Assembly (NCBI GenBank): GCA_934131005.1
Contig: CAKOYV010000007.1
Location: 6,689-70,688, forward strand
Direction of reading: 5' to 3'
DNA: 64,000 bases
Source: an uncultured Bacilli bacterium
GTDB lineage: Bacteria > Bacillota_I > Bacilli_A > RF39 > UBA660
Position 1 is the stretch's first letter. The number at the start of each line of letters is the position of its first letter. Positions 6,096 to 61,470 of the stretch are shown piece after piece. The notes below the pieces were generated by a model. The model was not told the DNA's origin. It did no database searches and worked only from the letters and a program-made list of their open reading frames with translations. The translations under genes were made by a program, and so were the position numbers.

Positions 6096-7076
6096 CTAAC
6101 TATATTCTACTTTAATAATAGAAGTATTATCTGTATTTGGATAAGTATAATTTATGGTTGTGTCTTTTTTATAGAATTTAACTTGCTTACTAGATAGAGC
6201 TTCAATAGAAAAGGTAATTGCTGTTACATATTCATAATTTCCAATTTTTTTAGTAGTGGTGTTTATTGCACTTAAATAGGATTCGTCTGTCATATCTAAA
6301 AGTACTTTTTTTGGATCAAAAGTCAATGTAATGAGAGCTGATTTACATTTGTTTTTTTCTTCATCAGTTAAGGATAAATAAGTTGAAATATCTATTTGGG
6401 AATTAACTTTATATTCCCCAAATGCTTCTTTAACTGTGTAATAATCAAGAGTATTTGTTATTTTAGTTTCTAAATAAGGACTTCCCTTTTTATCATTAAT
6501 TTCATAGGATAGCCCATAATAGCCTACGATTAATTTAAAGGTACCCGTTATCTTTTTTCGATATGGTGATGTAGAGATTGCCTCTACCTTAAGAGTCACA
6601 CTATCTTTATCATGGAGCGTTGTTGATGTTGGAATTGTTATTACCACGCTAAAGCTATCTTGGTTGCTACTAGATGGTATCATACTTTTTTCTTTATCAT
6701 CTTTAATACTACAGACAACATTATCTGAACAAGAATACTTAATATTATAATAAATATCACTGGTACTTTTTACTTTGCTATTACTTAAACTATTCATATT
6801 AAAGGTCACTTCATATTGTCCTACTCCTGACCAGTTAGTCATTTCAATATTAGCTCCTTTGCTAGACAATTTATCACAGTTAAAATAAAATCCTTTTGTT
6901 GATAAATAATAATCTTTAATATCTAAATAGGCATATTTCGCATAACTAGCACTACTCCCTATTAAAATAATCAATATAATATATATAACGATTGCTTTAA
7001 ACTGCCATTTCCCATTTTTTTTAATTATTAATATTTCTTTTATTTTGGATAATTTTGTTTTGATTTTTTCTAACAT
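6096..7076 (-). CDS. Secreted protein with SipW-cognate-type signal peptide (cassette 3 substrate)
   Basis: N-terminal TM/hydrophobic core IVIYIILIILIGSSASYAKYAY, with the (S/T)YA(K/W)(Y/F) motif. Located 4 nt downstream of a SipW-like gene. Confidence 0.5.
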   Translation of the reverse strand: MLEKIKTKLSKIKEILIIKKNGKWQFKAIVIYIILIILIGSSASYAKYAYLDIKDYYLSTKGFYFNCDKLSSKGANIEMTNWSGVGQYEVTFNMNSLSNSKVKSTSDIYYNIKYSCSDNVVCSIKDDKEKSMIPSSSNQDSFSVVITIPTSTTLHDKDSVTLKVEAISTSPYRKKITGTFKLIVGYYGLSYEINDKKGSPYLETKITNTLDYYTVKEAFGEYKVNSQIDISTYLSLTDEEKNKCKSALITLTFDPKKVLLDMTDESYLSAINTTTKKIGNYEYVTAITFSIEALSSKQVKFYKKDTTINYTYPNTDNTSIIKVEYS

Positions 7077-15900: not shown

Positions 15901-18900
15901 AGCTTTTAGCACTATTTTTATTGGTACAAGTTATTGCATCACCTGATGACGTAAAGTCATTTTCACATCCTGTAGCAGCAGCATTTCCTCCTCCAAATAG
16001 GTGTTTTGTGATTACTGTTTTTCCAGATACATCTACTTCATTTCCAGTTACAACGACAGCTGTTTTACCGTTGCCACCGGCATGAACACTTTCTCCTATG
16101 GTACTATCGGTAATTTTGGTTATAGCATTACCTAGAACTGCTCCATCATTGCCACCTCCATAGGTATTTCCTGAGATAGTGGCATTTTTTATTAAAACAC
16201 TTGTATCTCCATCTACTAAAGCAGCATTTCCTCCTCCATAGATATCTCCTTTAACTGTAGTTTTATCTAAGATGTTTAGAGAAGTGTCTTTTAATATACT
16301 AGCCTCATTCCCTCCTCCATAGATAGCTTTTAGAATAGTAGCATTAGTAGTTGTAACGTTAGGTTTATTTGTAACTGCTTTGTTTCCTCCTCCATAGATT
16401 GAACCATAACTTCCACTAGTTAAGTTAATATTACTAGTTTTAGTTAATCCACCTTCATTATTTCCACCATACATATTATTAACATATAAATCATTATAAT
16501 AAATTGTTTTAGTATCTGTTCCATCTGAATTATGACCTACTAATATATAACCTACAATTTGAAAATCAGAATAGTCTACGTAAGAATGAATACAAAATTC
16601 AAAAGAATGAGTTGAATTTGCTGATAAAGCATTTGCACCATACCATTGATTTGTTTGGTTGGAATGAAATACACCATTAATTTCTTCAACATTCGTTCCT
16701 GACCAGTTAGAGTCAAAAACAGCATCAGTGGTTATTAAGTAAAAATCCCAATTAGTATAACTTGTTGTTGAAGCATTGTGAAGAGTAACATTAATTTTTT
16801 CACTAGATTTTATTCCTAATGGATTGGTTTGGTTTACAGTACTAGTATCGAAAGAAACATCTGCATATAAGTTACTATTACTTTCTAATTCTTGAGGTGT
16901 ATTTTTTATATTAGTAGTAGTAACATTTCCTAATACATTAGAACCTCCAAAAATATTTTTTATATATCCTTTATTTAAATTTAAATGTGTAGTAATAACA
17001 CCAGCACTTTTTCCTCCTCCAAATAAATAATCTATTTTTCCATGAATTATATTTAGATTTGAGGTAGTTGTTTCTGCTTCTAGTCCTCCTCCATAAATGG
17101 AAGTAATAATACCACCTGTTACTGTTACATTAGAGTTTACGGTTGTTCCTCCCAAATTATTTCCTCCATAGACACTGTCTGCTATGCCGTCATTTATGTT
17201 GATATAACTAGTATGAACAGTTCCTTTTTGGTCAGATCCCCCAAAAACATTGGTAGCTCTGTTATTTAAATTAACATTAGTTGCAGAAACGATATCCGTC
17301 TCTCGACCGCCTCCATATACATCGGTAACATCTCCTCCATCTATTGATACATTACTTGTATTAGTTGTTCCTCCAATGTTATTTCCACCGTAAACATTTG
17401 TTACTTTACCTGATTTTACATTAACATTACTAGTTGTAACATCTCCACTTGTATTAGACGCACCAAATAAGTTAGTAACTGTCCCTCCATTTAATAAAAC
17501 ATGACTGATATCAACTTTTGCTTGATTACCTCCGCCATATCCATTAGTGGTAGTTCCTCCATAAAAATTAATGTTTGGTTCGCTTACTTCTGTTTGATTT
17601 CCTCCTGCATAGGCATTTGTTATTTTTCCTCCATGAACATTTACAGTTACACTTCCATTTGGAGTTCCCCTTTGATCGGATCCGCCATAAACATTGTCAA
17701 TTATTCCACCTTTAATATCAACAGCGACATTACCTAGAACATAAGGTGTATAAGTACCATTACCTTCTCCTCCTCCAAAAACGCTATTTATCGTTCCAGA
17801 TAATACTTCAATATTCGTATTTTTAGAAGAAATGGTTGTTGAATTACTTGCTCCGTTAACTGTACCAAAAGCACTTCCTCCATAGATAGCATTTTCTATT
17901 TTTAAGTTTTCATTACTCTCATTTTCTATCCCTGTTATAATTTTTACTTCTCCTGTTACAAAAGTACCTGGACTTGATGATGATTGATATCCACCTTCTC
18001 CTCCTCCATAACAAGAAGTTCTGACTGTACCTGATAAGAGATTTAGAGCAACATCTCCATAAACTGTTCCTTTAGTTCTTGAACCTCCATAGATAGATCC
18101 TTCTACCAATCCTCCATTTAGAGTTATATTTACTTTAAATTCTTTACTAGAGGTACTTGCTCCATTATTATTTCCCCCACCATAAACATTTCCTTTTATA
18201 GTACCTCCTAATAGAGAAATATTGCTATAATTTGAATTACTGCTACTATTAATTCCAGTAGCCCCGTAGTTTCCTCCTCCATAGACATTTCCTAAGATAG
18301 TCGCGTTAGAATCTACAATAATTGTTGAATTATCATTAGTCCCAATTGAATCAGTACCTGATTTACCATTACCAATCCCAAAGACTGATCCTGCTTCAGC
18401 ATTCCACAGTTTAGTTCCATTATTTACATTATCTTCCTTACCAATAACAGCATTTCCTCCTATATAGATAAATGAACTACCTGATAATTTACCATCTCCA
18501 TCAGAACCTATGTAACCATTAGAGCCTCCAAAAATTTGATAATTAACAACTCCACCAGTTACTGCTATGATTCTATTTCCATAAGTGGTACTAAGTCCCG
18601 CACCTCCTACTATTGCATCAACTTCTCCTCCTGTTATATACATATATATATCATTTAGACTATCTCGATTATCACTAGAAGTTGGTCCCCCTATTAGATT
18701 ATAAATCCATCCCCCTTCAACTTTAACTTTTTTTGGAGCATAATGATCTCCATATCCTCTACCACCAACATAGATACCTGTTGCATAATCTGATTTTCCT
18801 GATCCAAATTTCCCACTTTTTACAACAAAATCAAAGATTAGACTAGTAGTTGTATTAGTGGCATAATAATTACCTCCACCCCAGCTTGATGAAGCACAAA

Positions 18901-20644
18901 AATTAATATCGAGGTTATTATTGTTTTTTGTTACTTTATCATAATCATTCCCATATATAGCCTTACTATTTAAGTATCTTGAAGAACTATTACTATACGA
19001 GGCATTTGCTAAGGATATAGAATTATAAAAGCCACTTTCTATAATAACTTTATATTTAGTAGGATTACTAACACTACCTGTAGAAGATCCTCCTCCCCAG
19101 TAATTGCCACTATTATTATTATCTCCTGCTATAATAGCATTAAAAGTTTTATAACTACCACTTTGTACAATACCTCTACCTATTCTTACATTATGATAAT
19201 TACCATAAAAGTATTTTGAATTACTAGTACCACTAGAAGGACTACTACTATTATTACCAGTATTAGAATTTATCTTGATATTTTCTATGTTTACATCACT
19301 ATAAGCATGATAAGCGTTGCTAGAAACATCCCATGTAACATTATCTCGATAAGAAGTTCCATTATATATACTAGTTAAGGTATAAGGTTTGTTTTGACTA
19401 CTAGAAGGAACACTACTAGTATTAGATTGCATAACAATAATATTGGTATCTCTTGTTGCTAGATAATAATACTCATTATCACTAGAAGATACGATAACAT
19501 TACCATCGTTATCATAATATTGCATTAATTCATAATATTCACACCCATTATAATTATTACATGTTCCACTTTCTTGATATTCTCCTGTATCACTATAATA
19601 GCCACTAATAGATGAATATCTATCAATTGTAACTTTCTTGTAATAACCACTTACTATTATTCCATCATCAAACCCTGGTAAATTTTCATAGCCAGTAATT
19701 TGTGGAGTATAGACTTGCATCTGATTATTCCAACCACCAGTTGATAATTTATAATAAGTAACACTTGAATCATAATTATTTTCTGTAACTTTAGAATAAT
19801 AAGTACATCCATTCCTGTTACGACATTCGTCTCCAGATATATCATTTCCATATCTATCATAAGCATTATCTGGATAATACGTTTTACTCCACCAGCTACC
19901 ACTACTAGTAACAGTTTTTTGAGTATAAAGCCCTGTTATATCTTCATAGACAGCAACTTTCCCCCCTATTTTAACCATTCCTTTATCTTTTAATTTGTTA
20001 AAAGTACTTGACCATTGATTGGAAGTAGAAGTAATTTTTCCTACATCAGCAGTTACCCAATTAGCATGAAAAGTTATTTTTATATTACTTGTATCTGTTA
20101 CTGGTATTTTAGCATGTCTTTCATAATAATTATCATTATATTGAATAGTTACTCCTTTATAGTCTGTAACCCATCCATTGAACCCTTTATCGATTGGTCT
20201 ATCTGTAAAAGGATTTTCTATTAAGGTTATATCTATATATCCATCATTTATTGGATATACTTTATAATACTTATAAGTATTTTGTCTTTCAGTTAAGCTA
20301 ACATAACCTACTAAAGTATTATCATTAATATCAGTTCCATCATAAGTAATTTCAACATTCACTAGATTTTTTTCGTTATAAATATTTTGATTTTCTCCAC
20401 TTGGTAAGGAGCCCGTTGAACTTGCAGTATAATTTAAACTTTCATAATAATTATAATCACTTTCGGTTTCATCTACTATAACCATATTATCGAATACACC
20501 ACTGTTATTTTCTACTTCTGATAGTGTTGTTGTAGTTGTATATTCGCTATAAGTTAATGCATAAGTAGTGATAGAAGCAATTACTATAAGTGCTAATATT
20601 ACTGTTAGTAAAATTTTGCTTGTTTTATTATTTTTTCTTTTCAT
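12989..20644 (-). CDS. Giant (2551 aa) secreted surface protein with central parallel beta-helix-like (x)YGGGN repeats and a TasA-type signal peptide
   Basis: N-terminus K-rich, then hydrophobic core ILLTVILALIVIASITTYALTY. Dozens of ~20-22 aa repeats (NVYGGGN / SIYGGS / LFGGGN ...T.T.SNV.V) across residues ~640-1330. Paired Cys motifs (CRNRNGCTYY, CNNYNGCEYY). Ser/Thr/Asn-rich overall. Confidence 0.7.
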   Translation of the reverse strand: MKRKNNKTSKILLTVILALIVIASITTYALTYSEYTTTTTLSEVENNSGVFDNMVIVDETESDYNYYESLNYTASSTGSLPSGENQNIYNEKNLVNVEITYDGTDINDNTLVGYVSLTERQNTYKYYKVYPINDGYIDITLIENPFTDRPIDKGFNGWVTDYKGVTIQYNDNYYERHAKIPVTDTSNIKITFHANWVTADVGKITSTSNQWSSTFNKLKDKGMVKIGGKVAVYEDITGLYTQKTVTSSGSWWSKTYYPDNAYDRYGNDISGDECRNRNGCTYYSKVTENNYDSSVTYYKLSTGGWNNQMQVYTPQITGYENLPGFDDGIIVSGYYKKVTIDRYSSISGYYSDTGEYQESGTCNNYNGCEYYELMQYYDNDGNVIVSSSDNEYYYLATRDTNIIVMQSNTSSVPSSSQNKPYTLTSIYNGTSYRDNVTWDVSSNAYHAYSDVNIENIKINSNTGNNSSSPSSGTSNSKYFYGNYHNVRIGRGIVQSGSYKTFNAIIAGDNNNSGNYWGGGSSTGSVSNPTKYKVIIESGFYNSISLANASYSNSSSRYLNSKAIYGNDYDKVTKNNNNLDINFCASSSWGGGNYYATNTTTSLIFDFVVKSGKFGSGKSDYATGIYVGGRGYGDHYAPKKVKVEGGWIYNLIGGPTSSDNRDSLNDIYMYITGGEVDAIVGGAGLSTTYGNRIIAVTGGVVNYQIFGGSNGYIGSDGDGKLSGSSFIYIGGNAVIGKEDNVNNGTKLWNAEAGSVFGIGNGKSGTDSIGTNDNSTIIVDSNATILGNVYGGGNYGATGINSSSNSNYSNISLLGGTIKGNVYGGGNNNGASTSSKEFKVNITLNGGLVEGSIYGGSRTKGTVYGDVALNLLSGTVRTSCYGGGEGGYQSSSSPGTFVTGEVKIITGIENESNENLKIENAIYGGSAFGTVNGASNSTTISSKNTNIEVLSGTINSVFGGGEGNGTYTPYVLGNVAVDIKGGIIDNVYGGSDQRGTPNGSVTVNVHGGKITNAYAGGNQTEVSEPNINFYGGTTTNGYGGGNQAKVDISHVLLNGGTVTNLFGASNTSGDVTTSNVNVKSGKVTNVYGGNNIGGTTNTSNVSIDGGDVTDVYGGGRETDIVSATNVNLNNRATNVFGGSDQKGTVHTSYININDGIADSVYGGNNLGGTTVNSNVTVTGGIITSIYGGGLEAETTTSNLNIIHGKIDYLFGGGKSAGVITTHLNLNKGYIKNIFGGSNVLGNVTTTNIKNTPQELESNSNLYADVSFDTSTVNQTNPLGIKSSEKINVTLHNASTTSYTNWDFYLITTDAVFDSNWSGTNVEEINGVFHSNQTNQWYGANALSANSTHSFEFCIHSYVDYSDFQIVGYILVGHNSDGTDTKTIYYNDLYVNNMYGGNNEGGLTKTSNINLTSGSYGSIYGGGNKAVTNKPNVTTTNATILKAIYGGGNEASILKDTSLNILDKTTVKGDIYGGGNAALVDGDTSVLIKNATISGNTYGGGNDGAVLGNAITKITDSTIGESVHAGGNGKTAVVVTGNEVDVSGKTVITKHLFGGGNAAATGCENDFTSSGDAITCTNKNSAKSYVNIAGATILGNVYGGANTSVVYGETYVNIGINTIEDATDYQKDDIIIGGTVFGGGEANASGSVDYDFKFISVTKGININIDASKHTNYIISGSILGSGNASSSGGYSYVNINNYGNGDNYKTNVSIQRADVVTLNNSAIELLGATDRTNKYKNELFTFSRIKHLKLKNGSVLYLNKGTNLLEKYSSLVDIDGKEKNVEVTIDKENQKVAKNGENRIYMLEGKNLNISDDESLATYGEVSGMTFFGMFTKDRNGKITTALYSDKYNYGDTISGSEIYHFSTGSYVMGQHKENHNYYKDGFYTNYPEENGTTIKQDYIEPTPNDTIYYRWVVGESVEVIDLSLTASKYSTLGTYELQLLNYYQPNTEFHVLGVNYDNLSSNIELLSSEDIPRYAKTTEEANKNFGLSIKTGTNGWITKGDTEFITQKGSEVKGTTTYKSENSSTIPSFIFYLYHSKNLNVSADLGSVTISLMVSTPIDDLNSKIQRVNIQVNLSSALYDGDNYEGAITVGDQYEMFANSNVHITSTSTFSTYFSLFKKSNFTPYKDGYYRSLVSNYALPKNTKITMIDFASSDKPEYYYYVISKEDYENSLNELYTEGEISYPFSRFIKMGSSSANNTYSDSDANNRYYDSTNKKAEEEFIFNVDLKEANIDATVLKKNLLMELRDKNDNPVIPVLDIAQQKMTYNLYKGKDAIIDAEATLSNDTIYVGSSVELNVITNFDQQKTGSINIIDTNFYNQKLGIRLSLYDSEDNLVNGATLLGTKFIYEGVNYFPRQDGTVRFNIAESVANVSSKITIDTTNSNIPSGEYHLKIETFGSADGIYYGLAPSTTISKEVTIVNENFGLSVSMDDADNYVDAKTGRTSNKSKMLDFNLEYESNLKKPSIRVALYRRTYTDIYKYSYTKVNLQDYVTDTLKTSNTANEYLVMDSPNSRFQYILNLKDKLKTGTYQIKFLLYDNNTYVGEVVKYIIIK

Positions 20645-43555: not shown

Positions 43556-44550
43556 GAAGGATTTTAGCTTTTTACCTAGAACAATATATTTAGAGGGACT
43601 AAATTCCCTCTAAACAGAAAGGAGGAAAATTATAAAAAAACTAATTGAAAAAGAAAGATTAATTCCTTTAACCAAAGACTTTATGTTTAAGCATATCTTC
43701 ACCAATAATCCTGATATCCTAAAAAAATTCTTAATTGATGTTCTAAAACTAGATATCAACCCTAACCTAGCTACTATCATCATCGAAAATAATGAACTTA
43801 CTAAATCTAGGGAAAAAGAATATCAAAAGAATGTTGATATCTACGTTTCTATTAATAATAACCTAAGAATTGATATCGAAGTAAACTCTGAAAAATTTAG
43901 CTCCATTAAAGCTAGAAATGTCTTATATTTAAATAAAATTGCTATTGATACAACTGAATCAGGCTTTACTTACCAAAAAATGAACAAACAATATTTTTAT
44001 CAACTAAACTTAAATGCTCATAAATCTGATAAATATTTAGATGAAGAATACCTACTCGTATCTACAAACAAACACCAAATCTTACTAGATAATTATAAAA
44101 TTATTTGCAAATCTCTTGATTATTACAAAGAACTTTATTATAATCAAGGTAAGAATTCAAGCAAAGATGTAATATGGTTATCTTTACTTGGAGCAAATAA
44201 TTTTAATGAATTAGAGGAGATGGCAAGTTTAGTTATGAATGAGAAAGAAAAAAATAAGTTTGTAGGTGAATGCAAAGATTCTAGTAAAAACACCAAATGG
44301 TTATCCGAATGGGGAACAGAATACTTTGCCGAAATGGTGAAACATAATGTTATCGAAGATGCTAAAGAAGAAGGATTGAAAGAAGGTCAAAGAAAAGGAT
44401 TACAAGAAGGATTAAAGAAAGGAATTAATCAAAAACAAACAGAAATGGTAAAAAAGTTATTAGAGCAAAAAGTATCTTATGAAATTATTGCTACGGCTGC
44501 TTCTATTTCTGTTAACGACGTAAAAAGGATAGAAAAATCCATGTAAAATG
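43556..44550 (+). repeat. Direct repeat copy 1 (~1 kb, ~95% identical to 60482..61470)
   Basis: Begins GGATTTTAGCTTTTT(A/G)CCTAGAACAATATATTTAGAGGGACTAAATTCCCTCTAAACAGAAAGGAGG and runs through the Rpn-family gene. Identity was estimated by eye from aligned lines. Confidence 0.7.
43683..44546 (+). CDS. Rpn-family recombination-promoting nuclease / PD-(D/E)XK 'putative transposase', copy 1
   Basis: N-terminal ...PLTKDFMFKHIFT (family P..DF.FK.IF motif), YxxDIYVS...RIDIEVN (nuclease core), C-terminal EEG/KEG repeat tail. The frame is open upstream to 43614 with AGGAGG at 43620-43625, so the true start may be a non-ATG codon near 43632. Confidence 0.65.
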   Translation: MFKHIFTNNPDILKKFLIDVLKLDINPNLATIIIENNELTKSREKEYQKNVDIYVSINNNLRIDIEVNSEKFSSIKARNVLYLNKIAIDTTESGFTYQKMNKQYFYQLNLNAHKSDKYLDEEYLLVSTNKHQILLDNYKIICKSLDYYKELYYNQGKNSSKDVIWLSLLGANNFNELEEMASLVMNEKEKNKFVGECKDSSKNTKWLSEWGTEYFAEMVKHNVIEDAKEEGLKEGQRKGLQEGLKKGINQKQTEMVKKLLEQKVSYEIIATAASISVNDVKRIEKSM

Positions 44551-52657: not shown

Positions 52658-55066
52658 CTATCTATCATTTTTAAATTTTTCATTAATAGTCCTTTTTCTA
52701 ACAAAAGGTTTCTTCGTTACTACTTCTATTGACTGATCAATATGATTAATAAAATTCTCCCTATATAAAAACAACACCTTTTTAATAATTTCTTCAATCT
52801 CACTCTCATCAATTTCCAAAAATTTTGAAATAGACTCATTTCTATAATATTTACCATCAATATATCCAAATTTCAAGGCAACAATTACTTGTTCTTTTTC
52901 AGATAAACTCATCTTTATTTCTTCCAAAATCTGTGTTTTAAAAAATTCTAAAGAATCCATTTCTTCTTTTAACAAAATATCATTATTATCTTTATTTGGT
53001 TCTATAGACACTTCTGTCTTATCCTTATTTACCTTTTCTTCTATAGACACTTCTGCTTTTTCATCATTCACCTTTTTATTACCCCCTACTTTATTTTCAG
53101 TCTTTCTAACAATCTCAGAACTTACTACCATTTCTTCATTAATTACCTCAGGAGAATTAGATAATTCTTGTTTAGCAACTACATTATCAATAATATTGTC
53201 TTGCCTTTTTTTATTATCCTTATCTAATTTTCTCACAACTTCTTCATTTTCATCTTCAAAATTCAATCTTAAACTAATTAGCATTTTTTTCATTTTTAAA
53301 AGTGAAGAACTATAAAGCTTATCTCTTTGTTTTTTAGTCATTTCTGAAATTACAGGATTATCTAAGTCATCTCCATATCTGAGTCTAATTAAATTTTTAT
53401 CTTCATTAGGTAAATTAGCAATTACCGCATCTATTTCTTCCTTCTCATAATTACTAAATAACTCATAAATTGATTGAGATGATTTTCCGCCATTTTTTAT
53501 ACCTTTTTCTTGTAATTCATCATTTTTATCATCTTTCATGTTCACATTTATTTTAAAGAGTTTCGAAGATTCATTTGGATTCTCCTTAAATTTCTTTAAT
53601 TTTTCTAACGTTTCAACCGGATCTTGCATATAATCAGCAAAATATTCAATATAATCAGATTCTCTTATTTTCTTTAAAGCTGCTTCTTCATTTTGTCTAA
53701 TTCTTTCTCTACCAACACCATATTTTTCACCAATTTTTGCAAGAGACAAAGATTCTTTACCATCAAGCCCAAACCTCATCTTCAAAACTTCTAACTCTCT
53801 TTTCGTTAAATTACATTTATGAAGCAATTCATCTATCAAAGATGGTAAAACATTAGAAATAGCAGTATCTTCAACAGCCTCATCATCTGCTGCAATAAAA
53901 TTAGATAATTCTGTTTTTTTATCATCATCACCATTAACTATAGCATCTAAACTTGTCGTATAATTTTGATACTTATTAAACTCATTCACTTCTTCAAAAG
54001 TAAGACCAGTTTCCTGAACTATTTCATTTATAGAAAGTTCTCTACCTAATTTTAATTCCAATTTCTTTAAAATTTTTCTATAAAATGAAAGTTGTTCACA
54101 CATATGAACTGGAATTCTAATAGTTTTTCCCTTATCATCTATTGCTCTAATCATCTTCTGTTTTATCCAATGATACGCATAAGTTGCAAATGTTGTTCCA
54201 CAACTCAAATCATATTTTGATACAGCTATCATCAGGCCAATATTTCCTTCCTGAATTAAATCCAAAAAATCAACACCATGATTAACATATTTTTTTGCCA
54301 TACTAACAACTAATCTTAAATTTCGCTCAATAAGTAATTGCTTTGCCACCTCATCCCCCTTCGACACTCTTAAAAACAAATTTTTTGTTTCTGAAGCAGA
54401 AAGTAATGGCCTTCTCCTAATTTCATTCAAATACATTCTAACATTATCTGGTAAATTCAAATTTTTATTTATATCTTCATATTTTATAGCATCATAAAAT
54501 TCTTTTATTTCAATATTATTAACTATACAATAATCTTCAATCATCAATATTAATAAATCACTATCAAAAACATCGTCTAAATTTCCCTTTTCAATTTCTT
54601 CCCTATATTTTTGGACAATTATTCTCAAATTTCCCGAAATAATATCATTTTTACCAACTAATTCTAGTAACACTGAAAATGGTGAAATACACTTATATTT
54701 ATCAAAAAAAGAAGATAACTTTTCTAGTTCTTTAATTGCCATATCACTATTTTTAACATTAGATTTTAAATTCTTATCTATATAATTATTCAAACTAGCA
54801 ATTACCTTTGTAGAATCTTTAAAATATAACTTAATATATTCTTCTGTCATCCCCAAAAGTCGATTTTGAAAATATTCATCAAAAGATACATCTCCAATAT
54901 AAAGTTTTTTAGATTTATCAATCTCACTTAAACACAAATTATAAAAATAATCTTCATTAATATCTATATCAGAAATATTTTTATAAAGTGAATCAATATA
55001 AAATGTTAACTTTTTAAATATTTTCATCGAATCCATATTTTGAATTTTTTCATAATCAAATGTCAT
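52658..55066 (-). CDS. SigA/RpoD-like sigma-70 factor (regions 1.2-4.2 within residues ~210-480) with an additional ~320-aa C-terminal extension of sigma-region-4-like modules
   Basis: NLRLVVSMAKKYVNHGVDFLDLIQEGNIGLMIAVSKYD (region 2), TIRIPVHM (2.4/3.0), LTKRELEVLKMRFGLDGKESLSLAKIGEKYGVGRERIRQNEEAALKKIR (4.2). After that: YELFSNYEKEEIDAVIANLPNEDKNLIRLRYGDDLDNP and LSEKEQVIVALKFGYIDGKYYRNESISKFLEIDESEIEEII, both homologous to the three downstream ORFs. Confidence 0.7.
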   Translation of the reverse strand: MTFDYEKIQNMDSMKIFKKLTFYIDSLYKNISDIDINEDYFYNLCLSEIDKSKKLYIGDVSFDEYFQNRLLGMTEEYIKLYFKDSTKVIASLNNYIDKNLKSNVKNSDMAIKELEKLSSFFDKYKCISPFSVLLELVGKNDIISGNLRIIVQKYREEIEKGNLDDVFDSDLLILMIEDYCIVNNIEIKEFYDAIKYEDINKNLNLPDNVRMYLNEIRRRPLLSASETKNLFLRVSKGDEVAKQLLIERNLRLVVSMAKKYVNHGVDFLDLIQEGNIGLMIAVSKYDLSCGTTFATYAYHWIKQKMIRAIDDKGKTIRIPVHMCEQLSFYRKILKKLELKLGRELSINEIVQETGLTFEEVNEFNKYQNYTTSLDAIVNGDDDKKTELSNFIAADDEAVEDTAISNVLPSLIDELLHKCNLTKRELEVLKMRFGLDGKESLSLAKIGEKYGVGRERIRQNEEAALKKIRESDYIEYFADYMQDPVETLEKLKKFKENPNESSKLFKINVNMKDDKNDELQEKGIKNGGKSSQSIYELFSNYEKEEIDAVIANLPNEDKNLIRLRYGDDLDNPVISEMTKKQRDKLYSSSLLKMKKMLISLRLNFEDENEEVVRKLDKDNKKRQDNIIDNVVAKQELSNSPEVINEEMVVSSEIVRKTENKVGGNKKVNDEKAEVSIEEKVNKDKTEVSIEPNKDNNDILLKEEMDSLEFFKTQILEEIKMSLSEKEQVIVALKFGYIDGKYYRNESISKFLEIDESEIEEIIKKVLFLYRENFINHIDQSIEVVTKKPFVRKRTINEKFKNDR

Positions 55067-55109
55067 ATAGAAACACCTCCATATTACTACAAATTTATTT
55101 TATGTTTTT

Positions 55110-55832
55110 CTATTTTCTCTTCAAAGTTTTCTTTGTTATTATCTCTATCGCTTGATCAATTTGATTAATAGAATTTTCTCTATATAACAATAATACTTTT
55201 TCAATAATTTCTTCAACTTCAGTCTCATCAATCCCAAAAAACTTTGCAATATCATCATTTCTATAATATTTCCCATCAATAAATCCAAATTTTAACAAAA
55301 TAATTACTCTCTCTTTTTCAGATAACCCCATTTTTATACCTTCCAATATTGGTGTTTTAAAAAAGCCTAGGGAATTTAATTCATCTAATTTTGAAAAAGC
55401 CTTATTATCTTTCTTTGCTACATTTGTTATACTTACTATTTCATTATCTTCTTCTATATATGTATCAGAATTTATTACCTCTTCAGTATCACTTTTTATC
55501 TCTTCTGAAATAGATAAATTTTGTAAATCTACTACATTATCTATAACATTATCTTCACTTTTTTCAATACTTTTATTTAAATTTTCCTTTTCTAACTGAG
55601 ATTTATTATTTAAATTGAATAACCTTCTTTTCATTTTGGGAATTAAAGTATAATAAAATCTATTATATTGTTTTTTAGTAAGTTTTACTGATACAGGATT
55701 ATCTAAGTCATCTCCATATCTAATTCTAATTAATTCTTTTTCTTCATTAGATAAAGTAGCAATCACTTCATTTATTTTTTCCTTCTCATAGTCACTGAAT
55801 AGCTCATAAATTGTCTTAAGTTTTCTTCCCAT
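55110..55832 (-). CDS. Sigma-region-4-like module protein, paralog 1 (240 aa)
   Basis: IYELFSDYEKEKINEVIATLSNEEKELIRIRYGDDLDNPV and GLSEKERVIILLKFGFIDGKYYRNDDIAKFFGIDETEVEEII modules. Confidence 0.6.
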   Translation of the reverse strand: MGRKLKTIYELFSDYEKEKINEVIATLSNEEKELIRIRYGDDLDNPVSVKLTKKQYNRFYYTLIPKMKRRLFNLNNKSQLEKENLNKSIEKSEDNVIDNVVDLQNLSISEEIKSDTEEVINSDTYIEEDNEIVSITNVAKKDNKAFSKLDELNSLGFFKTPILEGIKMGLSEKERVIILLKFGFIDGKYYRNDDIAKFFGIDETEVEEIIEKVLLLYRENSINQIDQAIEIITKKTLKRK

Positions 55833-55850
55833 TTTTAAAATCTCCTTCTT

Positions 55851-56465
55851 TTAAATTCTTTCTCTTTTCTTAATCAAAAGTTTCTCTGATGATATTTCTA
55901 CCGAATAATCAATAAGCTCGATAATATTCTCTTCAGATGTTTTTTGAATAATTTTTGCAACATCACTTTCAGCTATATCTTCATTTGCCTTTTCTAGTAA
56001 GCTTTTTACTCTAGGAAGCAAAGAATTATAAAAATTATTTTCTTGCTCTTCAGTTATTTCTAATGACTCAGAATTATCTAAATCCTCACCATACTTAAGT
56101 ATAATCAATTTTTTATCATTATCAGATAAAGTAGCAATCACTGCATCTACTTGTTCCCTTGAATAATCATTAAATAATTCATAAATTGATTCATTACCCG
56201 TTAATTTCCCATACTTTTCTGCTAAGGATTTTATTACCCAAGGAATAAGAAAAATTTCAACTGCACCTATTTCAACATTCGACATTCGCACTCTCTTAAT
56301 CCTAACCAAATCATCTAAACATAAATTTTTCTCTATTTCATTTTCACTACACCAACGATAAATTAAATTTACAACCTTAGGCTCGCACTCAGAAAGCACT
56401 TTATCTATTTGTTCTCCCTTATAGCCACTAAATAATTCATAAATAAAGTTACGTTTTTTAGTCAT
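55851..56465 (-). CDS. Sigma-region-4-like module protein, paralog 2 (204 aa)
   Basis: Two YELF modules (FIYELFSGYKGEQIDKVLSE.. ; IYELFNDYSREQVDAVIATLSDNDKKLIILKYGEDLDN). Confidence 0.6.
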   Translation of the reverse strand: MTKKRNFIYELFSGYKGEQIDKVLSECEPKVVNLIYRWCSENEIEKNLCLDDLVRIKRVRMSNVEIGAVEIFLIPWVIKSLAEKYGKLTGNESIYELFNDYSREQVDAVIATLSDNDKKLIILKYGEDLDNSESLEITEEQENNFYNSLLPRVKSLLEKANEDIAESDVAKIIQKTSEENIIELIDYSVEISSEKLLIKKRERI

Positions 56466-56481
56466 TTTTTATCTCCTTCTT

Positions 56482-57456
56482 TTAAATTCTCTCTTTTTTC
56501 CTAATCAAACGTTTTTCTGTTGATATTTCTATCGAATGATCAATAAGTTTTTTAACATTTTCATCATATACTTTTTGAATAGTTTCTATAATATCACTTT
56601 CCTTTAACTTTAAAATTTTAGCAATATCTTCATTTCTATAATATTTCCCATCAATATATCCAAATTTTAAAGCAATAATTAACTGCTCCCTATCAGATAA
56701 ACTCATACTTATCCCCTCAAGCATAGTCCTTTTTAAAAAATCCATAAAATCTATTTCTTCATTTGCTTTTTCTAGTAATCTTTTTACTCTAGGAAGCAAA
56801 GAATTAGAAAAAATATTTTCTTGCTCTTCAGTCATTTCTAATGATACAGGATTAGCTAAATCATCTCTGTACTTAAGCATAATTAGTTCTCTCTCATTAT
56901 CAGATAAAGTTGCAATCACTGCATCTACTTGCTCTCTTGGATAATCATTAAATAATTCATAAATTGATTTACTCTCCTTTGGTTTTCCATACTTTTTGGC
57001 CAAAGATTCTCTTATCTGAGGAATATAAACTAATTCAACTCTACGTTTACAGTTATCATCCATCCTTACTCTGCGAACCCTAACATAATCTTTTAAACAT
57101 AAATTTTTTTCGATTTCATCTTCACTACACCATAGATAAATTAAATTTACAACCTTAGGCTTGCATTCAGAAAGCACTTCATCTATCTGTTCCTTTTTAT
57201 ACCCATTAAATAATCCATAAATTGATTTATTACCAATTGGTTGACCATACTGTTTTAATAAAGATTCTCTTATTTTAGGAAAAGTATGATTTTTAACTAC
57301 CTTTTTATTAACCCTATTCATCCGAAAATCGCCTTCATTACACCACTCATTAACTAATTTCACCTCCGAAGTCCCCAACTCAGAAAGTACATAATCTATT
57401 TGTTCCTTTTTATACCCACTAAATAATTCATAAATAAAGTCATGTTTTTTAGTCAT
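56482..57456 (-). CDS. Sigma-region-4-like module protein, paralog 3 (about 324 aa)
   Basis: Three YELF modules plus one LSDREQLIIALKFGYIDGKYYRNEDIAKIL module. Likely start MTKKHDF at 57456 with AGGAG RBS; the track extends to 57492. Confidence 0.6.
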   Translation of the reverse strand: MTKKHDFIYELFSGYKKEQIDYVLSELGTSEVKLVNEWCNEGDFRMNRVNKKVVKNHTFPKIRESLLKQYGQPIGNKSIYGLFNGYKKEQIDEVLSECKPKVVNLIYLWCSEDEIEKNLCLKDYVRVRRVRMDDNCKRRVELVYIPQIRESLAKKYGKPKESKSIYELFNDYPREQVDAVIATLSDNERELIMLKYRDDLANPVSLEMTEEQENIFSNSLLPRVKRLLEKANEEIDFMDFLKRTMLEGISMSLSDREQLIIALKFGYIDGKYYRNEDIAKILKLKESDIIETIQKVYDENVKKLIDHSIEISTEKRLIRKKERI

Positions 57457-57605
57457 TTTTTCGCTCCTTCTTTTTTTTCTTTTAAAATACAATTGTATAC
57501 TTCAAAAATAAAGTTAAAACAATCAAGTACTGTCCTATATTTTAGCACTTATTACTTCTTTAGTAAATAATTTAACAGTTTTAGCCCTTCATTTCGCCAC
57601 CAAAT

Positions 57606-57641
57606 TATCCGTATATTAACAAAAAAGAAGACCTTAAAGAT
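57606..57641 (-). terminator. Intrinsic terminator after the 685-aa membrane-protein gene
   Basis: Minus strand: AGAAGATCTTTAAGGTCTTCT hairpin followed by TTTTTTGTT. Confidence 0.5.
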
Positions 57642-57681
57642 CTTCTACTAAATATTACATTTTTTTATCATTAAATTAACT

Positions 57682-59739
57682 TTATTTTAAAACAACTGAA
57701 ATCAACATGCCCAACAAAATTAAAACCATCAATGAAAGGGATAAAATAAGTATATTAGAAAAACCACTCTTTGATAATGTTCTACTTCTTCCTTTAATAG
57801 CTTGCTGTTGCTGTTTTTTTACTATATCACTCATTGTTTTAGCAAATTGAGCCTCAGAATAAAGTTTCATCTTTCTAGCATCCTTATGATTCATTGATGC
57901 TATTTTTTTTGAGGAAACATAAGAATAATTTTGCTTCTTAGCAACATATGCTTCTGGATGAAAAGAAATACCCATATTTGCAAATTGTTTCTCTAACGCG
58001 CCCTGACGTTGAGAGAAATTTGCTTTCTTGTTACCATTAGTATTTGTTTTCATATTTTGTGCATTCTTTTTATTATCAGCCTTAACCTCTTTATTACCTT
58101 GTTGCTTATTTACTAAATTAGAATTAGCTCTCCTTTGAATATCTCCTTTTTGCAAATTAGCATTTTGCTTCTTTTGCCTATTACTATATTTATTAGCAAT
58201 AGCTTGTGTTTTAGATCTAGGCACTGTTGTCAAAATAGGACTTATACTTTGATTAAAAGTCTTAACACTAATTAATTCTTTATGAAAAGAAGTAACTTCT
58301 TTCAAATACACATCACTACCATACATTCTTTGAGCATAAGATTTAATACGCCTATCAGCTAATGCTAATGCCGCTTCATTATCAATAATTTTTTTCCTCT
58401 CTTGTTGAATTTGACTATTAATATTATTCAAACTTTGTTCATGAACATCTATATTTTGCCTACGCTCTTCTATTTGAGCATCTATCCTATTAATTTCCTC
58501 AGTTATCTTTTGTATCTTTTTTTCACGAAGTTTAGAAATAAATGTAACCCTAGAACTTTTCTTAAAAACAGTATCATTTAACTTTTTCTTTAACATATCT
58601 TTTCTTTTCTCATAAGCTTTTATAACTACCTGAGAACCTTTTATACTCATAGAAGATATCATAACATCAGAATTTAATTTACTAATATTCTTCTTTGCTT
58701 GCGAAATATTATCCCTATACTGACTCTTACTAGCATTTTCTTGAGCTATATTATTTACATTATTTTTAACACTACGTTCTATATTATTTCTTCTCTTATT
58801 TAAATGATCGCTTATTAATTTTTTATCCCTATCTAAAGAAGACATTTTATAAAGAGTTGCCAAAGTATCTAAGTTCATTAAATCTAACAACTCATTTTTA
58901 TTTTCAGAGCTATTATAAACATTTATTAGAAAAAATGAAGCCAGCATCTTTCCTTTCATTATTTTAGAATTCAAAATTTCTCTTTTATCTATAGTACTAA
59001 GCTTATTAAATAACTGTCTTTGCTTTTGTATATCAGCAAGATCATAGAAGAATAAAACCTTATTTGTAGCCTGATTATATTTTTTCATTAAATCATCATT
59101 AACAGCCACCTTACTTGCCCTCATATTATTATTAGAAATATTTTCCTTATTTTTAGTCACATTAAAATCTCTAGGTATTTTCTTCTCCTCTTTTATAACC
59201 CTCAATTCTTTAGGAGGAAAAATAATCTCATATCTACGTCCTAACCACTCTCTTAATAATTTATCTAAATCAACATAATTTTCTTTTAATTTTTTTATCT
59301 TCCCAATATCAAGGTTATTAGCAATTGCTTTTTTTGATGCATAATCAAATTCCTTACTAACAAGTATTTCATATATATCTTTTAATTCTAAATCTTTATT
59401 ATTATTTATAACAGCAATCTTATCGGCTGGAGAAATTAACCTATATAATTGGCTTTTTTCAAAAAGTGTTGCTACAGCAAATATTTCTTTTTTATCACTT
59501 AATTCCTCAGTATTATAAAAATATTGGTTAACTGGTAAACTTCCACTATTTAAATAAGCTTTAGCACCATCTAAAACAGCTTTCTGAGAACCAGAATTAA
59601 GCTCACTGCTAAATAAATTAGTGATTTCTTGTTGTAAATTAGAACTCCACCACTCAGTGCTTTTATTAGAACGAATCATTTCTTGAATAAACATCCTTGT
59701 CAGAGTGTCATTTATCATTGAATTATTACTATTATTCAC
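57682..59739 (-). CDS. Large basic N/Q/K-rich coiled-coil protein with C-terminal TM anchor (685 aa)
   Basis: Long ORF. Predicted coiled coils at ~330-480. C-terminal SNILILSLSLMVLILLGMLISVVLK. Confidence 0.5.
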   Translation of the reverse strand: MNNSNNSMINDTLTRMFIQEMIRSNKSTEWWSSNLQQEITNLFSSELNSGSQKAVLDGAKAYLNSGSLPVNQYFYNTEELSDKKEIFAVATLFEKSQLYRLISPADKIAVINNNKDLELKDIYEILVSKEFDYASKKAIANNLDIGKIKKLKENYVDLDKLLREWLGRRYEIIFPPKELRVIKEEKKIPRDFNVTKNKENISNNNMRASKVAVNDDLMKKYNQATNKVLFFYDLADIQKQRQLFNKLSTIDKREILNSKIMKGKMLASFFLINVYNSSENKNELLDLMNLDTLATLYKMSSLDRDKKLISDHLNKRRNNIERSVKNNVNNIAQENASKSQYRDNISQAKKNISKLNSDVMISSMSIKGSQVVIKAYEKRKDMLKKKLNDTVFKKSSRVTFISKLREKKIQKITEEINRIDAQIEERRQNIDVHEQSLNNINSQIQQERKKIIDNEAALALADRRIKSYAQRMYGSDVYLKEVTSFHKELISVKTFNQSISPILTTVPRSKTQAIANKYSNRQKKQNANLQKGDIQRRANSNLVNKQQGNKEVKADNKKNAQNMKTNTNGNKKANFSQRQGALEKQFANMGISFHPEAYVAKKQNYSYVSSKKIASMNHKDARKMKLYSEAQFAKTMSDIVKKQQQQAIKGRSRTLSKSGFSNILILSLSLMVLILLGMLISVVLK

Positions 59740-60481: not shown

Positions 60482-61470
60482 GATTTTAGCTTTTTGCCTA
60501 GAACAATATATTTAGAGGGACTAAATTCCCTCTAAACAGAAAGGAGGCAAATTATAGAAAAATTAATTGCAAAAGAAAGATTAATTCCTTTAACCAAAGA
60601 CTTTATGTTTAAGCATATCTTCACCAACAATCCTGATATCCTAAAAAAATTCTTAATTGATGTTCTAAAACTAGATATCAACCCTAACCTAGCTACTATC
60701 ATCATCGAAAATAATGAACTTACTAAATCTAGGGAAAAAGAATATCAAAAGAACGTTGATATCTATGTTTCTATTAATAATAACTTAAGAATTGATATTG
60801 AAGTAAACTCTGAAAAATTTAGCTCTATTAAAGCTAGAAATGTTCTATATTTAAATAAAATTGCTATTGATACAACCGAATCAGGCTTTACTTATCAAAA
60901 AATGAACAAACAATATTTTTATCAACTAAACTTAAATGCTCATAAATCTGACAAATATTTAGATGAAGAATACCTACTCGTATCTACAAATAAACACCAA
61001 ATCTTACTAGATAATTATAAAATTATTTGCAAATCTCTTGATTATTACAAAGAACTTTATTATAATCAAGGTAAGAATTCAAGCAAAGATGTAATATGGT
61101 TATCTTTACTTGGAGCAAATAATTTTAATGAATTAGAGGAGATGGCAAGTTTAGTTATGGATGAGAAAGAAAAAAATAAATTTGTAGCCGAATGCAAAGA
61201 TTCTAGTAAAAACACCAAATGGTTATCTGAATGGGGAACAGAATACTTTGCCGAAATGGTGAAACAAAACGTTATCGAAGATGCTAAAGAAGAAGGATTA
61301 AAAGAAGGATTAAAAGAAGGATTAGAAAAAGGAATTAATCAAAAACAAACAGAAATGATTAAAAGTTTTTTAAAGCAAAATGTTTCCATAGAAATCATTG
61401 CAAAAGCTGCTAACATTTCCGTTAAGGACGTAAAAAAGATAGAAAAATCCATGCAAAATGGAGATTAATT
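60482..61470 (+). repeat. Direct repeat copy 2 (matches 43556..44550)
   Basis: Same leader with the TAGAGGGA-N6-TCCCTCTA palindrome and AGGAGG, followed by the Rpn-family ORF. Confidence 0.7.
60605..61468 (+). CDS. Rpn-family recombination-promoting nuclease / PD-(D/E)XK 'putative transposase', copy 2
   Basis: 287 aa, about 96% identical to copy 1 over the first 180 aa. Divergent EEGLKEGLKEGLEKG repeat tail. Confidence 0.65.
   Translation: MFKHIFTNNPDILKKFLIDVLKLDINPNLATIIIENNELTKSREKEYQKNVDIYVSINNNLRIDIEVNSEKFSSIKARNVLYLNKIAIDTTESGFTYQKMNKQYFYQLNLNAHKSDKYLDEEYLLVSTNKHQILLDNYKIICKSLDYYKELYYNQGKNSSKDVIWLSLLGANNFNELEEMASLVMDEKEKNKFVAECKDSSKNTKWLSEWGTEYFAEMVKQNVIEDAKEEGLKEGLKEGLEKGINQKQTEMIKSFLKQNVSIEIIAKAANISVKDVKKIEKSMQNGD

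Follow-up and report, generated by a model that had tools for sequence, protein, structure and literature searches.

A SigA-like sigma factor with a tail of region-4-derived modules, encoded together with free copies of the tail in an uncultured Bacilli bacterium

The regulators Rsd/AlgQ, T4 AsiA and ORF67 of phage G1 bind region 4 of sigma factors without being homologues of it. A known sigma mimic is PhyR of the Alphaproteobacteria, in which sigma-2-like and sigma-4-like subdomains are fused to a receiver and bind the anti-sigma NepR (PMC4598750). A sigma factor can also carry its regulator in cis. In ECF41, a regulatory C-terminal extension is fused to the sigma factor (PMC3426412), and across ECF41, ECF42 and other ECF groups a domain fused after region 4 regulates, or presumably regulates, the sigma with no separate anti-sigma (PMC3426412, PMC7826278). 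Here we describe a large protein family, for which we found no earlier description and whose sigma factors bear as many as about 15 modules derived from region 4, and an operon-like locus in which one such sigma is encoded with free copies of its tail.

The window that we analysed is the whole stretch of 64,000 nt at positions 6,689 to 70,688 (forward strand) of contig CAKOYV010000007.1, assembly GCA_934131005.1. The host is an uncultured gut bacterium of the Bacilli, spore-forming and low in GC (25–30% for the genome). It encodes a cluster of four genes flanked by housekeeping genes (Table 1). All four lie on the minus strand, and thus the module-only genes come first and the sigma gene last, the order of transcription being 324, 204, 240 and sigma. 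The genes are separated by gaps of only 16–43 nt, and the promoter-like site is located downstream of a terminator-like hairpin (57626–57646) that ends the preceding gene; the four genes are apparently one operon. Ribosome-binding sites and intact ORFs are kept in all of them (4/4), with identical copies on about 70 contigs, and the 802-aa protein has an identical sequence on 66 contigs. For the gene with the arrangement A'-A'-A-B, gene callers give 324 aa (P0090 is the same 324-aa protein), while an alternative TTG start at 57492 would lengthen the product to 336 aa (ORF 56482–57492).

Table 1. Features of the four-gene cluster, in window coordinates (position 1 is the first nucleotide of the window)
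Feature	Residues	Position	Strand	Evidence
SigA-like sigma gene, 802 aa (N-terminal domain + C-terminal A-linker-B tail)		52658..55066	-	ORF; Pfam r1.2, r2, r3, r4
Module B of sigma tail	713-795	52682..52930	-	HMM match E 2e-47; sigma region 4 homology
Acidic E/K/N-rich linker, predicted disordered	601-712	52931..53266	-	pLDDT below 50 in equivalent linker of 240-aa paralogue
Module A of sigma tail	529-600	53267..53482	-	HMM match E 4e-40
Sigma core, regions 1.2-4.2	207-480	53627..54448	-	Pfam, NCBIfam, sequence reading
Family-specific N-terminal domain	1-205	54452..55066	-	Conservation in family
Free A-linker-B gene, 240 aa		55110..55832	-	ORF, paralogy, module HMM, AF2 model, AGGAG ribosome-binding site
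Module B of 240-aa protein	161-240	55113-55352	-	
Module A of 240-aa protein	5-76	55605-55820	-	
Free gene, 204 aa: A', A and C-terminal B remnant	6-90 (A'), 91-162 (A), 163-204 (B remnant)	55851..56465	-	
Free gene, 324 aa, A'-A'-A-B		56482..57456	-	ATG at 57456 with AGGAG ribosome-binding site
Promoter-like site TTTACT-17-TAAAAT with upstream TG, 5' of the four-gene cluster		57539..57567	-	Consensus match only

The 802-aa protein is comprised of five parts: an N-terminal domain, the sigma core, module A, an acidic linker and module B. An earlier note, made from the sequence, had read a complete sigma factor in this ORF, and Pfam bore this out. Region 1.2 was matched at residues 207–226 (22.8 bits, cut-off 22), region 2 at 245–314 (70.4 bits), region 3 at 324–395 (31.0 bits) and region 4 at 420–469 (50.5 bits), the order that defines group 1/2 of the sigma-70 factors. 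The recognition helix RERIRQ is intact in region 4.2 (GVGRERIRQNEEAALKKIR). Region 2 is mostly canonical, with an unusual region 2.4 (YHWIKQKMIRAI). Besides this region 2.4, the protein differs from group 1/2 factors in its C-terminal tail of 320 aa and in a 205-aa N-terminal domain that takes the place of region 1.1. The earlier note left this N-terminal domain unmentioned. The domain is kept in 38 of the 54 SigA-like family members, as well as in L006, L012, L002 and L015; it had no match in Pfam, and none among PDB sequences (best E 0.07).

Next, we considered whether this protein is the housekeeping sigma. Its score against the NCBIfam RpoD equivalog PRK09210 is 254 bits, under half the cut-off of 572. 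It is also set off by its position: no dnaG adjoins the gene, which lies outside any dnaG-sigA operon. No second sigA was found within the 64-kb window. In the relative L002, the orthologue of the 802-aa protein is followed 0.7–2.4 kb downstream by genes for DnaG and for a SigA of 358 aa, and this short SigA reaches the RpoD cut-off (572.4 vs 572 bits). Since a canonical dnaG-sigA operon stands beside the long paralogue in this relative, the tailed-sigma family is not the housekeeping sigma. The 802-aa protein is probably a second, non-housekeeping, group-2-like SigA paralogue.

With ECF41 and ECF42 the family shares a fused domain after region 4 and its conservation across a whole clade. The carriers, however, are group-1/2-like and SigK/E-like rather than ECF factors, their extension is built of tandem modules derived from sigma-4, and free copies are co-encoded; no SnoaL-like or TPR-type domain was found in the sigma tail. 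We rejected an ECF41/42-type sigma because regions 1.2 and 3 are present in the core and the other carriers best match SigK/SigE models. As in PhyR, a degenerate sigma domain outside promoter recognition would serve as a protein-binding surface. Unlike PhyR, the family has neither a receiver nor a sigma-2-like part, and its modules come in repeats, mostly attached to genuine sigma factors; a PhyR-type mimic was rejected, as the proteins scanned had no receiver domain and there was no conserved small neighbour. MzaA, the sigma of the MZA anti-phage system, was likewise rejected: the score was 228 bits against at least 800, and only the core aligns (226–482 to 462–716). PADLOC matched MzaA through the sigma core only and gave no other defence match. 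What the modules have in common with Rsd/AlgQ, AsiA and ORF67 is the interface of region 4 with the beta-flap, which would likewise be open to a free sigma-4-like domain, the difference being that A and B are themselves homologues of region 4. Free region-4 mimics had been put forward as known anti-sigma or appropriator-like factors; Rsd and AsiA are binders of region 4, and it is PhyR that provides the known mimic. An anti-sigma or appropriator role for the present modules is suggested only by analogy.

Module B is a full sigma-4 domain and a true homologue of region 4. The B profile matched PDB sequences with E 5e-8 over 66 residues, and hhalign aligned it with canonical sigma-4 over 79 columns (99.3% probability, E 8e-21), while single B sequences reached 15.5–17.3 bits in Pfam, under the threshold of 24.1. 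The AF2 model of B superposed on solved sigma-4 structures with an rmsd of 1.0–1.7 Å and a TM of 0.84, the latter for region 4 of sigma-A (6onu_H; rmsd 1.5 Å over 61 columns), and all of the top 50 Foldseek matches (50/50) were sigma chains. Homology thus spans the whole domain, and the helix-turn-helix is predicted to be retained. The basic contacts to the −35 element are not: the arginines of the recognition helix were swapped for conserved glutamates. Among 141 B modules, the positions equivalent to TRERIRQ are 63% acidic, 48% acidic (R584, E. coli numbering), 41% acidic, 92% acidic (R586), V, 24% basic (R588) and 68% acidic (Q589). The median pI of B is 5.2. B has also gained a conserved C-terminal amphipathic helix, seen as a long helix at 203–233 of the 240-aa model that extends past the sigma-4 fold; its strongly conserved polar and hydrophobic positions are Y68, K69, E70, N73, D77 and I80, and its pLDDT in the monomer is only moderate.

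Module A is related to region 4 in sequence and not in predicted fold. Against canonical sigma-4, hhalign gave 94.7% probability and E 6e-8 over 63 columns. The A profile matched the PDB with E 2e-3, the nine best matches all being SigA/RpoD region 4.1 and covering region 4.1 only, and in P0018, a protein with 10 copies of A, Pfam Sigma70_r4_2 totalled 96 bits over profile positions 2–29 only. AF2 modelled A with confidence (pLDDT 90, pTM 0.74), yet the model has one continuous helix at 53–77 where the helix-turn-helix is expected, and it does not superpose on sigma-4 (best Foldseek E against the PDB 0.57, TM 0.3–0.55). Judging from profiles and this model, A is a helical module of ~75 aa descended from sigma-4 and amplifiable in tandem, whose helix-turn-helix appears to have straightened into a long helix. 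The resemblance of both modules to region 4 was thus upheld at the level of profiles, while a sigma-4 fold for A was not.

Module A is mildly basic. Its median pI is 8.8 and its net charge +2, and in the hhalign register K67 and K69 stand opposite R586 and R588 of sigma-4 (K/R at 84% and 83%). A is therefore not simply region 4 minus its DNA contacts, and the proposed loss of the RERIRQ signature was borne out for B. Acidic residues (E10, E18, D21, E31, D42) are among the best-conserved surface positions of A. The linkers between A modules are basic, with K at 17%, and the A-B linker has a family-wide median of 49 aa in length, with a net charge of −3. Both recurring module types keep conserved positions across species at only 25–40% identity, and hence they are not low-complexity sequence; the E/K/N-rich disordered sequence (pLDDT below 50) is limited to the A-B linker.

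The three free proteins are tandemly duplicated copies of the sigma tail. BLASTP aligned tail residues 527–791 of the 802-aa protein with the 240-aa protein over its whole length at 50% identity (E 1e-75), and the remaining pairs of paralogues have E-values of 1e-20 to 1e-82. The 240-aa protein, 50% identical to its neighbour's tail, is at most 40% identical to any protein of another species. The 204-aa protein is 54% identical to residues 91–336 of the next gene (336-aa numbering) and has the first half of B deleted. The paralogy of the three genes noted earlier was thus confirmed, while their position was not, for they had been placed downstream of the sigma gene. Their module-only composition needs qualifying as well: modules are present throughout, but the 204-aa protein retains a mere remnant of B, and both it and the 324-aa protein carry the divergent variant A'.

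A family profile search was performed (matches at E<=1e-3, clustered at 50% identity), and architectures were read from the best 150 clusters. The family has at least 1,825 clusters. Among the best 150 of these were 54 SigA-like sigmas whose tail is (A)1-14 + B, 42 SigK/E-like sigmas, most with (A)1-7 + B, and about 55 free (A)1-15 + B proteins; B was single and terminal in nearly all. The grammar of the family is a SigA-like sigma, a SigK/E-like sigma or nothing, followed by (A)1-15, an acidic linker and B. The locus is one member of this family and not a one-off, and a sigma accompanied by tandem free copies recurs independently in other genomes. In L015, a sigma fused to B is followed by three free (A)2-B genes; module A is absent from this sigma, and B is thus the element that stays constant. 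In L013, a free (A)3-B gene comes after two SigK-like fusions, and L016 has two free genes in tandem. No model for the tail family was found in Pfam, NCBIfam or PADLOC, and no paper was found that describes the family or its arrangement, in agreement with the earlier note.

What might such a tail do? The most likely reading, which we hold tentatively and at somewhat less than even confidence, is that it is a protein-binding regulatory appendage acting by sigma-4 mimicry. The tail would not read promoter DNA. B would dock on a partner whose usual target is region 4; another B, a sigma-4-directed regulator and the beta-flap tip of core RNAP are the candidates. The A array would offer equivalent binding surfaces in variable number. 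The acidic DNA-contact residues of B and the acidic A-B linker are consistent with this, as is the recurrence of tandem free and fused clusters, taken as functional coupling. Against it, A is mildly basic and the A-A linkers are basic. Were B to dock on the beta-flap, it would vie with the intact region 4 of its own sigma, an awkward arrangement for a fusion in cis. No candidate partner gene conserved beside family members was found. In addition, A and B are found on an NTP-transferase and a metallophosphoesterase, neither of them a sigma factor, and hence a general adaptor fits as well as an RNAP-specific one.

The basic charge of A would suit a different role, in which A arrays and their linkers attach to AT-rich upstream DNA with little or no sequence specificity, like alpha-CTD on UP elements, and extend the promoter contacts, the free (A)n-B proteins being DNA-binding factors that join RNAP via B. 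In the holoenzyme, the segment leaving region 4.2 emerges beside the DNA upstream of the −35 element, where the tail would emerge as well. This placement, the lysines of A opposite R586 and R588, the K-rich A-A linkers and the low genomic GC all fit. We nevertheless consider this unlikely, given the predicted loss of the helix-turn-helix in A, its low TM to sigma-4, its conserved acidic surface residues, the acidic B and A-B linker, and the L015 sigma that has B without A.

Alternatively, the C-terminal amphipathic helix of B might pair B with B, with no mimicry towards RNAP, so that sigmas, free (A)n-B proteins and occasional enzymes are joined into assemblies or localised, for example in sporulation. 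The long conserved helix past the sigma-4 fold, with its moderate monomer pLDDT, would suit such pairing, as would the constant terminal position of B on very different N-terminal partners, enzymes included, the tandem co-encoding of family members and the many SigK/E-like carriers in spore-formers. This account seems quite improbable, for it leaves unexplained both the descent of the two modules from region 4 and the amplification of A to 15 copies.

A role as decoys in conflict with phages is very doubtful. Tandem region-4 pseudo-domains would absorb phage anti-region-4 proteins (AsiA- or ORF67-like) and protect transcription, an arms race changing their number. Copy number does vary from 1 to 15, the tandem gene duplications are lineage-specific, and region 4 is a known phage target, complexes of G1 ORF67 with domain 4 of S. 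aureus SigA being among the structure matches. However, PADLOC found nothing beyond the core's match to MzaA, the neighbours are housekeeping genes with no defence-island or phage context, no relatives were found in viral contigs or BFVD, and the surface of B differs so strongly from canonical region 4 that it would make a poor decoy. Finally, the view that this is just the housekeeping SigA, its low-complexity tail having no function and its neighbours being decaying duplicates, is disfavoured and scarcely credible: the loss of half of B in the 204-aa protein, the low-complexity linker and the lack of a second sigA in the window fit, but module conservation with fold-level confidence at 25–40% identity across 1,825 clusters, the RpoD score, the canonical dnaG-sigA operon beside the orthologue, and four intact ORFs with ribosome-binding sites, identical on about 70 contigs, all contradict it.

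Under sigma-4 mimicry, which remains our tentative preference, the partner of the sigma's tail would also be the target of the free (A)n-B proteins, which would act in competition with that tail or in addition to it. The outcome would be a tuning of how well the alternative sigma competes against the housekeeping SigA.

The C-terminal tail of the 802-aa SigA-like sigma factor consists of two folded derivatives of sigma region 4, modules A and B, split by an acidic, disordered linker, and free and fused forms of these modules are encoded together. Positions 52658-57492 of the window are filled by four co-directional ORFs, all on the minus strand. Each is preceded by an AGGAG-type ribosome-binding site, the intergenic gaps are 16-43 nt, and the four genes apparently form one operon. 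An earlier note, made from the sequence alone, placed the module-only genes downstream of the sigma gene. Minus-strand transcription runs in the order 324, 204, 240 and 802 aa, which puts all three small genes upstream of the sigma gene. GC content across the window is 25-33%, and the same contig (ENA gut metagenome) also encodes SpoIIM, GerQ, pheST, tkt, mscL, rbfA and truB.

Features of the window operon, the 802-aa protein and loci of other genomes (L numbers). A' is a divergent variant of A; layouts marked HMM come from HMMs built on the window copies.
Feature	Position	Strand	Description
Terminator-like hairpin	57646-57626	-	at the end of the 685-aa gene that precedes the operon
Promoter-like site, extended -10	57567-57539	-	after the hairpin; consensus match only
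336/324-aa gene	57492/57456-56482	-	transcribed first; 324-aa protein A', A', A, B (HMM)
204-aa gene	56465-55851	-	transcribed second; A', A, C-terminal remnant of B (HMM)
240-aa gene	55832-55110	-	transcribed third; A, linker, B (HMM)
802-aa sigma gene	55066-52658	-	transcribed last
802-aa protein, region 1.2	aa 207-226		Pfam
802-aa protein, region 2	aa 245-314		Pfam
802-aa protein, region 3	aa 324-395		Pfam
802-aa protein, region 4	aa 420-469		Pfam
802-aa protein, tail	A (529-600), linker, B (713-795)		HMM
SigK/E-like sigmas, L003	8190-10681
SigK/E-like sigmas, L004	9296-11539
SigK/E-like sigmas, L007	8636-10555
Cluster, L015			N-terminal domain, SigA-like core, linker and B (762 aa, no A); followed by three free (A)2-B genes in tandem
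Cluster, L013			two SigK-like-(A)4/6-B genes; followed by one free (A)3-B gene
Cluster, L016			two free genes in tandem

The minus strand carries nearly all genes of the window, and GC skew stays negative along its whole length (cumulative -9.3), a picture that fits a single replichore with strong gene co-orientation. Two PDDEXK_2 (PD-(D/E)XK nuclease-family transposase) genes of 287 aa each, at 43683-44546 (+) and 60605-61468 (+), are 93% identical, share an orientation and bracket a 16-kb segment that holds the sigma operon along with truB, rbfA, a DHH phosphoesterase, tkt and mscL. A 2,551-aa ORF at 12989-20644 (-) gave no Pfam match at E<=1e-3; GC along it is 0.31-0.33, against about 0.25 in its surroundings. 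Directly upstream of the operon, at 57682-59739 (-), is the gene for the 685-aa protein. Its one transmembrane helix is C-terminal (aa about 660-683), and Pfam gave it no reliable match. This tail-anchored neighbour was rejected as an anti-sigma factor, since no relative of it was found beside family members in the other loci and a terminator-like hairpin lies between its gene and the operon.

The 802-aa protein scored 254 bits with the NCBIfam RpoD equivalog, against a cut-off of 572, and retains an intact GRERIRQ in region 4.2. Its region 2.4 reads FATYAYHWIKQKMIRAI (aa about 283-300; window 53900-54000, minus strand) and is less canonical than in the orthologues, which have FSTYATWWI(K/R)QAITRAI at this site. 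The His found in place of one of the paired tryptophans suggests that -10 handling may be altered in the window species. Residues 1-205 form a helical domain that is kept in orthologues, with no sequence relative in Pfam or PDB. At locus L002 of another genome, the orthologue is followed by DnaG and by a 358-aa SigA that scores 572.4 with the same RpoD model; in L002, then, the long sigma and the housekeeping sigma are paralogues. Residues 527-791 of the 802-aa protein are 50% identical to the entire 240-aa neighbour (E 1e-75). Fusion by read-through or frameshift was rejected, since 66 contigs encode an identical 802-aa protein and other species have orthologues of 767-802 aa.

Both modules had been said to resemble region 4, and for B the resemblance holds in sequence and in fold. 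A profile of 16 B modules matched solved sigma-A region 4 chains over 66 residues (E 5e-8). In hhalign, where 100 of 141 B modules (hhalign's own filter) were aligned to 80 canonical region-4 sequences drawn from the same set of proteins, the match reached 99.3% probability over 79 columns (E 8e-21). The AF2 model of the 240-aa protein had a pLDDT of about 88 in A, below 50 in the linker and 80-90 in B, and Foldseek with the AF2 model returned sigma chains only (e.g. 6onu_H, TM 0.84, rmsd 1.5 Å). The earlier note was also right that the DNA-contact signature is gone in B: across the 141 modules, the columns equivalent to T-R-E-R are 63%, 48%, 41% and 92% acidic, respectively, and those equivalent to I-R-Q are V, 24% basic and 68% acidic. 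These columns show a conserved charge reversal in the DNA-reading helix of B, which, judged by its residues, could not contact DNA in the manner of region 4. Past the region-4 fold, B has a further conserved helix (…LLxYKENxNxFIDxAIE…).

For A, the claimed resemblance held in sequence and failed in fold. A 90-sequence A profile matched canonical region 4 with a probability of 94.7% over 63 columns (hhalign, E 6e-8). Against PDB sequences A aligned to region 4.1 only (E 2e-3), and Pfam Sigma70_r4_2 on the family protein P0018, which has 10 A copies, summed to 96 bits over profile positions 2-29 only. With small profiles, hhalign aligned A to B over 24 columns at only 45% probability, and the relation emerged only with larger profiles. 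AF2 modelled isolated A confidently (pLDDT 90.4, pTM 0.74), with helices at 8-11, 17-26 and 29-39, the conserved YGxDLxNP loop and a single long helix at 53-77. Foldseek with this model found no significant match in PDB or BFVD (best E 0.57 and 0.36). Taken together, the hhalign match, the modelled long helix and the Foldseek result indicate that A is a descendant of region 4 that has departed from the helix-turn-helix fold. Low-complexity sequence as the origin of the modules was rejected on account of their conserved positions and AF2 pLDDT of about 90.

Module A has a median pI of 8.8 and module B one of 5.2. Successive A modules are joined by basic linkers of about 8 aa; the linker from A to B is acidic and about 49 aa long. 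The variant A' (window 56196-56450 and 56977-57444, minus strand) was seen only in the 204- and 324-aa proteins of the window species. Its sequence, …LI(Y/N)xWC(S/N)E…NLCL…, includes conserved cysteines, and about 12 aa are inserted where A has its RYGxDLxNP loop.

A word-indexed search yielded just 14 relatives, while an HMM search of 1.84 billion cluster representatives yielded 1,825 at E<=1e-3, 1,090 at E<=1e-10 and 436 at E<=1e-30. Clustered at 50% identity, the family numbers at least 1,825. The best 150 of these are 186-1,693 aa long, with up to 15 matched stretches, and some family members reach 1,400-1,700 aa. The best 150, the window proteins and the word-search matches together made up the 164 sequences of a domain scan. 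SigA-like sigmas (54/164) had 1-14 A and a terminal B, with the N-terminal domain in 38 of the 54. SigK/E-like sigmas (42/164) had 1-7 A and a terminal B in 37. Proteins with no sigma core (67/164, or about 55 after exclusion of window copies, near-identical variants and fragments) had 1-15 A and a terminal B in 62, and most start at A. B was single and C-terminal in nearly all scanned proteins: it is the terminal element that stays constant, and A is the one that can be amplified. The modules also occur on non-sigma proteins: in the family protein P0124, a winged HTH and a MobA-like NTP-transferase precede A and B, and at L011 (5801-7084) A is followed by a calcineurin-like metallophosphoesterase. 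At L003 and L004, SigK/E-like sigmas occur in tandem pairs, with and without an (A)n-B tail. The tailed ones fall short of the equivalog cut-offs for SigK and SigE. They begin close to the start of mature B. subtilis SigK (…LPKPL…), and so seem to lack an N-terminal pro-sequence.

GTDB representative genomes held 11 loci, nine of them labelled uncultured or MAG Bacilli from gut or faecal samples, human and goat among them; of the others, one was labelled Muribaculaceae and one only "uncultured bacterium". The carriers observed are, without exception, uncultured gut lineages. The survey of related genomes that the earlier note had proposed revealed clusters of sigma and free-module genes at L015 and L013 and a free tandem at L016. 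Judged by these clusters, the window arrangement is one case of a recurrent pattern produced by local duplication. The 240-aa protein is 50% identical to its neighbour's tail, against at most 40% to any protein of other species. Elsewhere, sigma fusions adjoin unrelated housekeeping genes (uvrC, tRNA synthetases, an amidase). A phage or mobile origin was rejected: relatives were not found on viral contigs, BFVD gave no significant fold match, and the neighbours are housekeeping genes. A defence system was likewise rejected, as PADLOC matched only the sigma core, to MzaA, the sigma factor of the MZA anti-phage system.

We propose that the appendage acts via protein contacts inherited from region 4. 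Its partners may be the beta-flap tip, region-4-directed regulators or B itself, and the free proteins would either rival the tail of the sigma itself or add to it. There are precedents in PhyR, a sigma mimic, and Rsd, a region-4 binder (PMC4598750), and in ECF41, with its fused C-terminal regulatory domains (PMC3426412). Our confidence in the molecular identity of the tail and free proteins is high, and that in the protein-contact mechanism is moderate to low, because we infer the interactions. As an alternative, the A arrays could contact DNA, given that A is mildly basic and, in the hhalign register, has K/R opposite R586 and R588. B might instead mediate oligomerisation or localisation, or the modules might serve as a decoy for phage factors directed at region 4. 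An inert tail is disfavoured. We regard as improbable, if worth stating, that the arrays of up to about 15 pseudo-domains in sigma factors and free proteins of uncultured gut Bacilli act in cis and in trans as multivalent region-4 mimics or decoys, occupying the beta-flap tip or titrating cellular or phage region-4-directed regulators, and so exert an unrecognised control of sigma competition.

Sigma factors with tandem tails derived from region 4 did not turn up in our literature search, nor did free (A)n-B proteins; A and B have no Pfam, NCBIfam or PADLOC model, in keeping with the earlier note, which did not recognise the arrangement as described. Seven family proteins that were looked up are unnamed in every source. 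Sigma factors are among the best-studied bacterial proteins. A sigma with a fused regulatory extension and sigma-domain mimicry are already known in kind; the domain family, its unusual repeat architecture and its presence in two sigma classes are new. To our knowledge, fused regulatory extensions have so far been described mainly in ECF sigmas, whereas the carriers here are primary-like and sporulation-type, and the tandem modules come from the sigma's own region 4 and are also encoded free beside it. If the tails bind RNAP or region-4 regulators, they would be a new means of tuning sigma competition; if they bind DNA, a new means of extending promoter contacts in very AT-rich genomes. Under either reading, A and B merit family definition, and they offer a concrete handle on transcription in metagenome-only bacteria.
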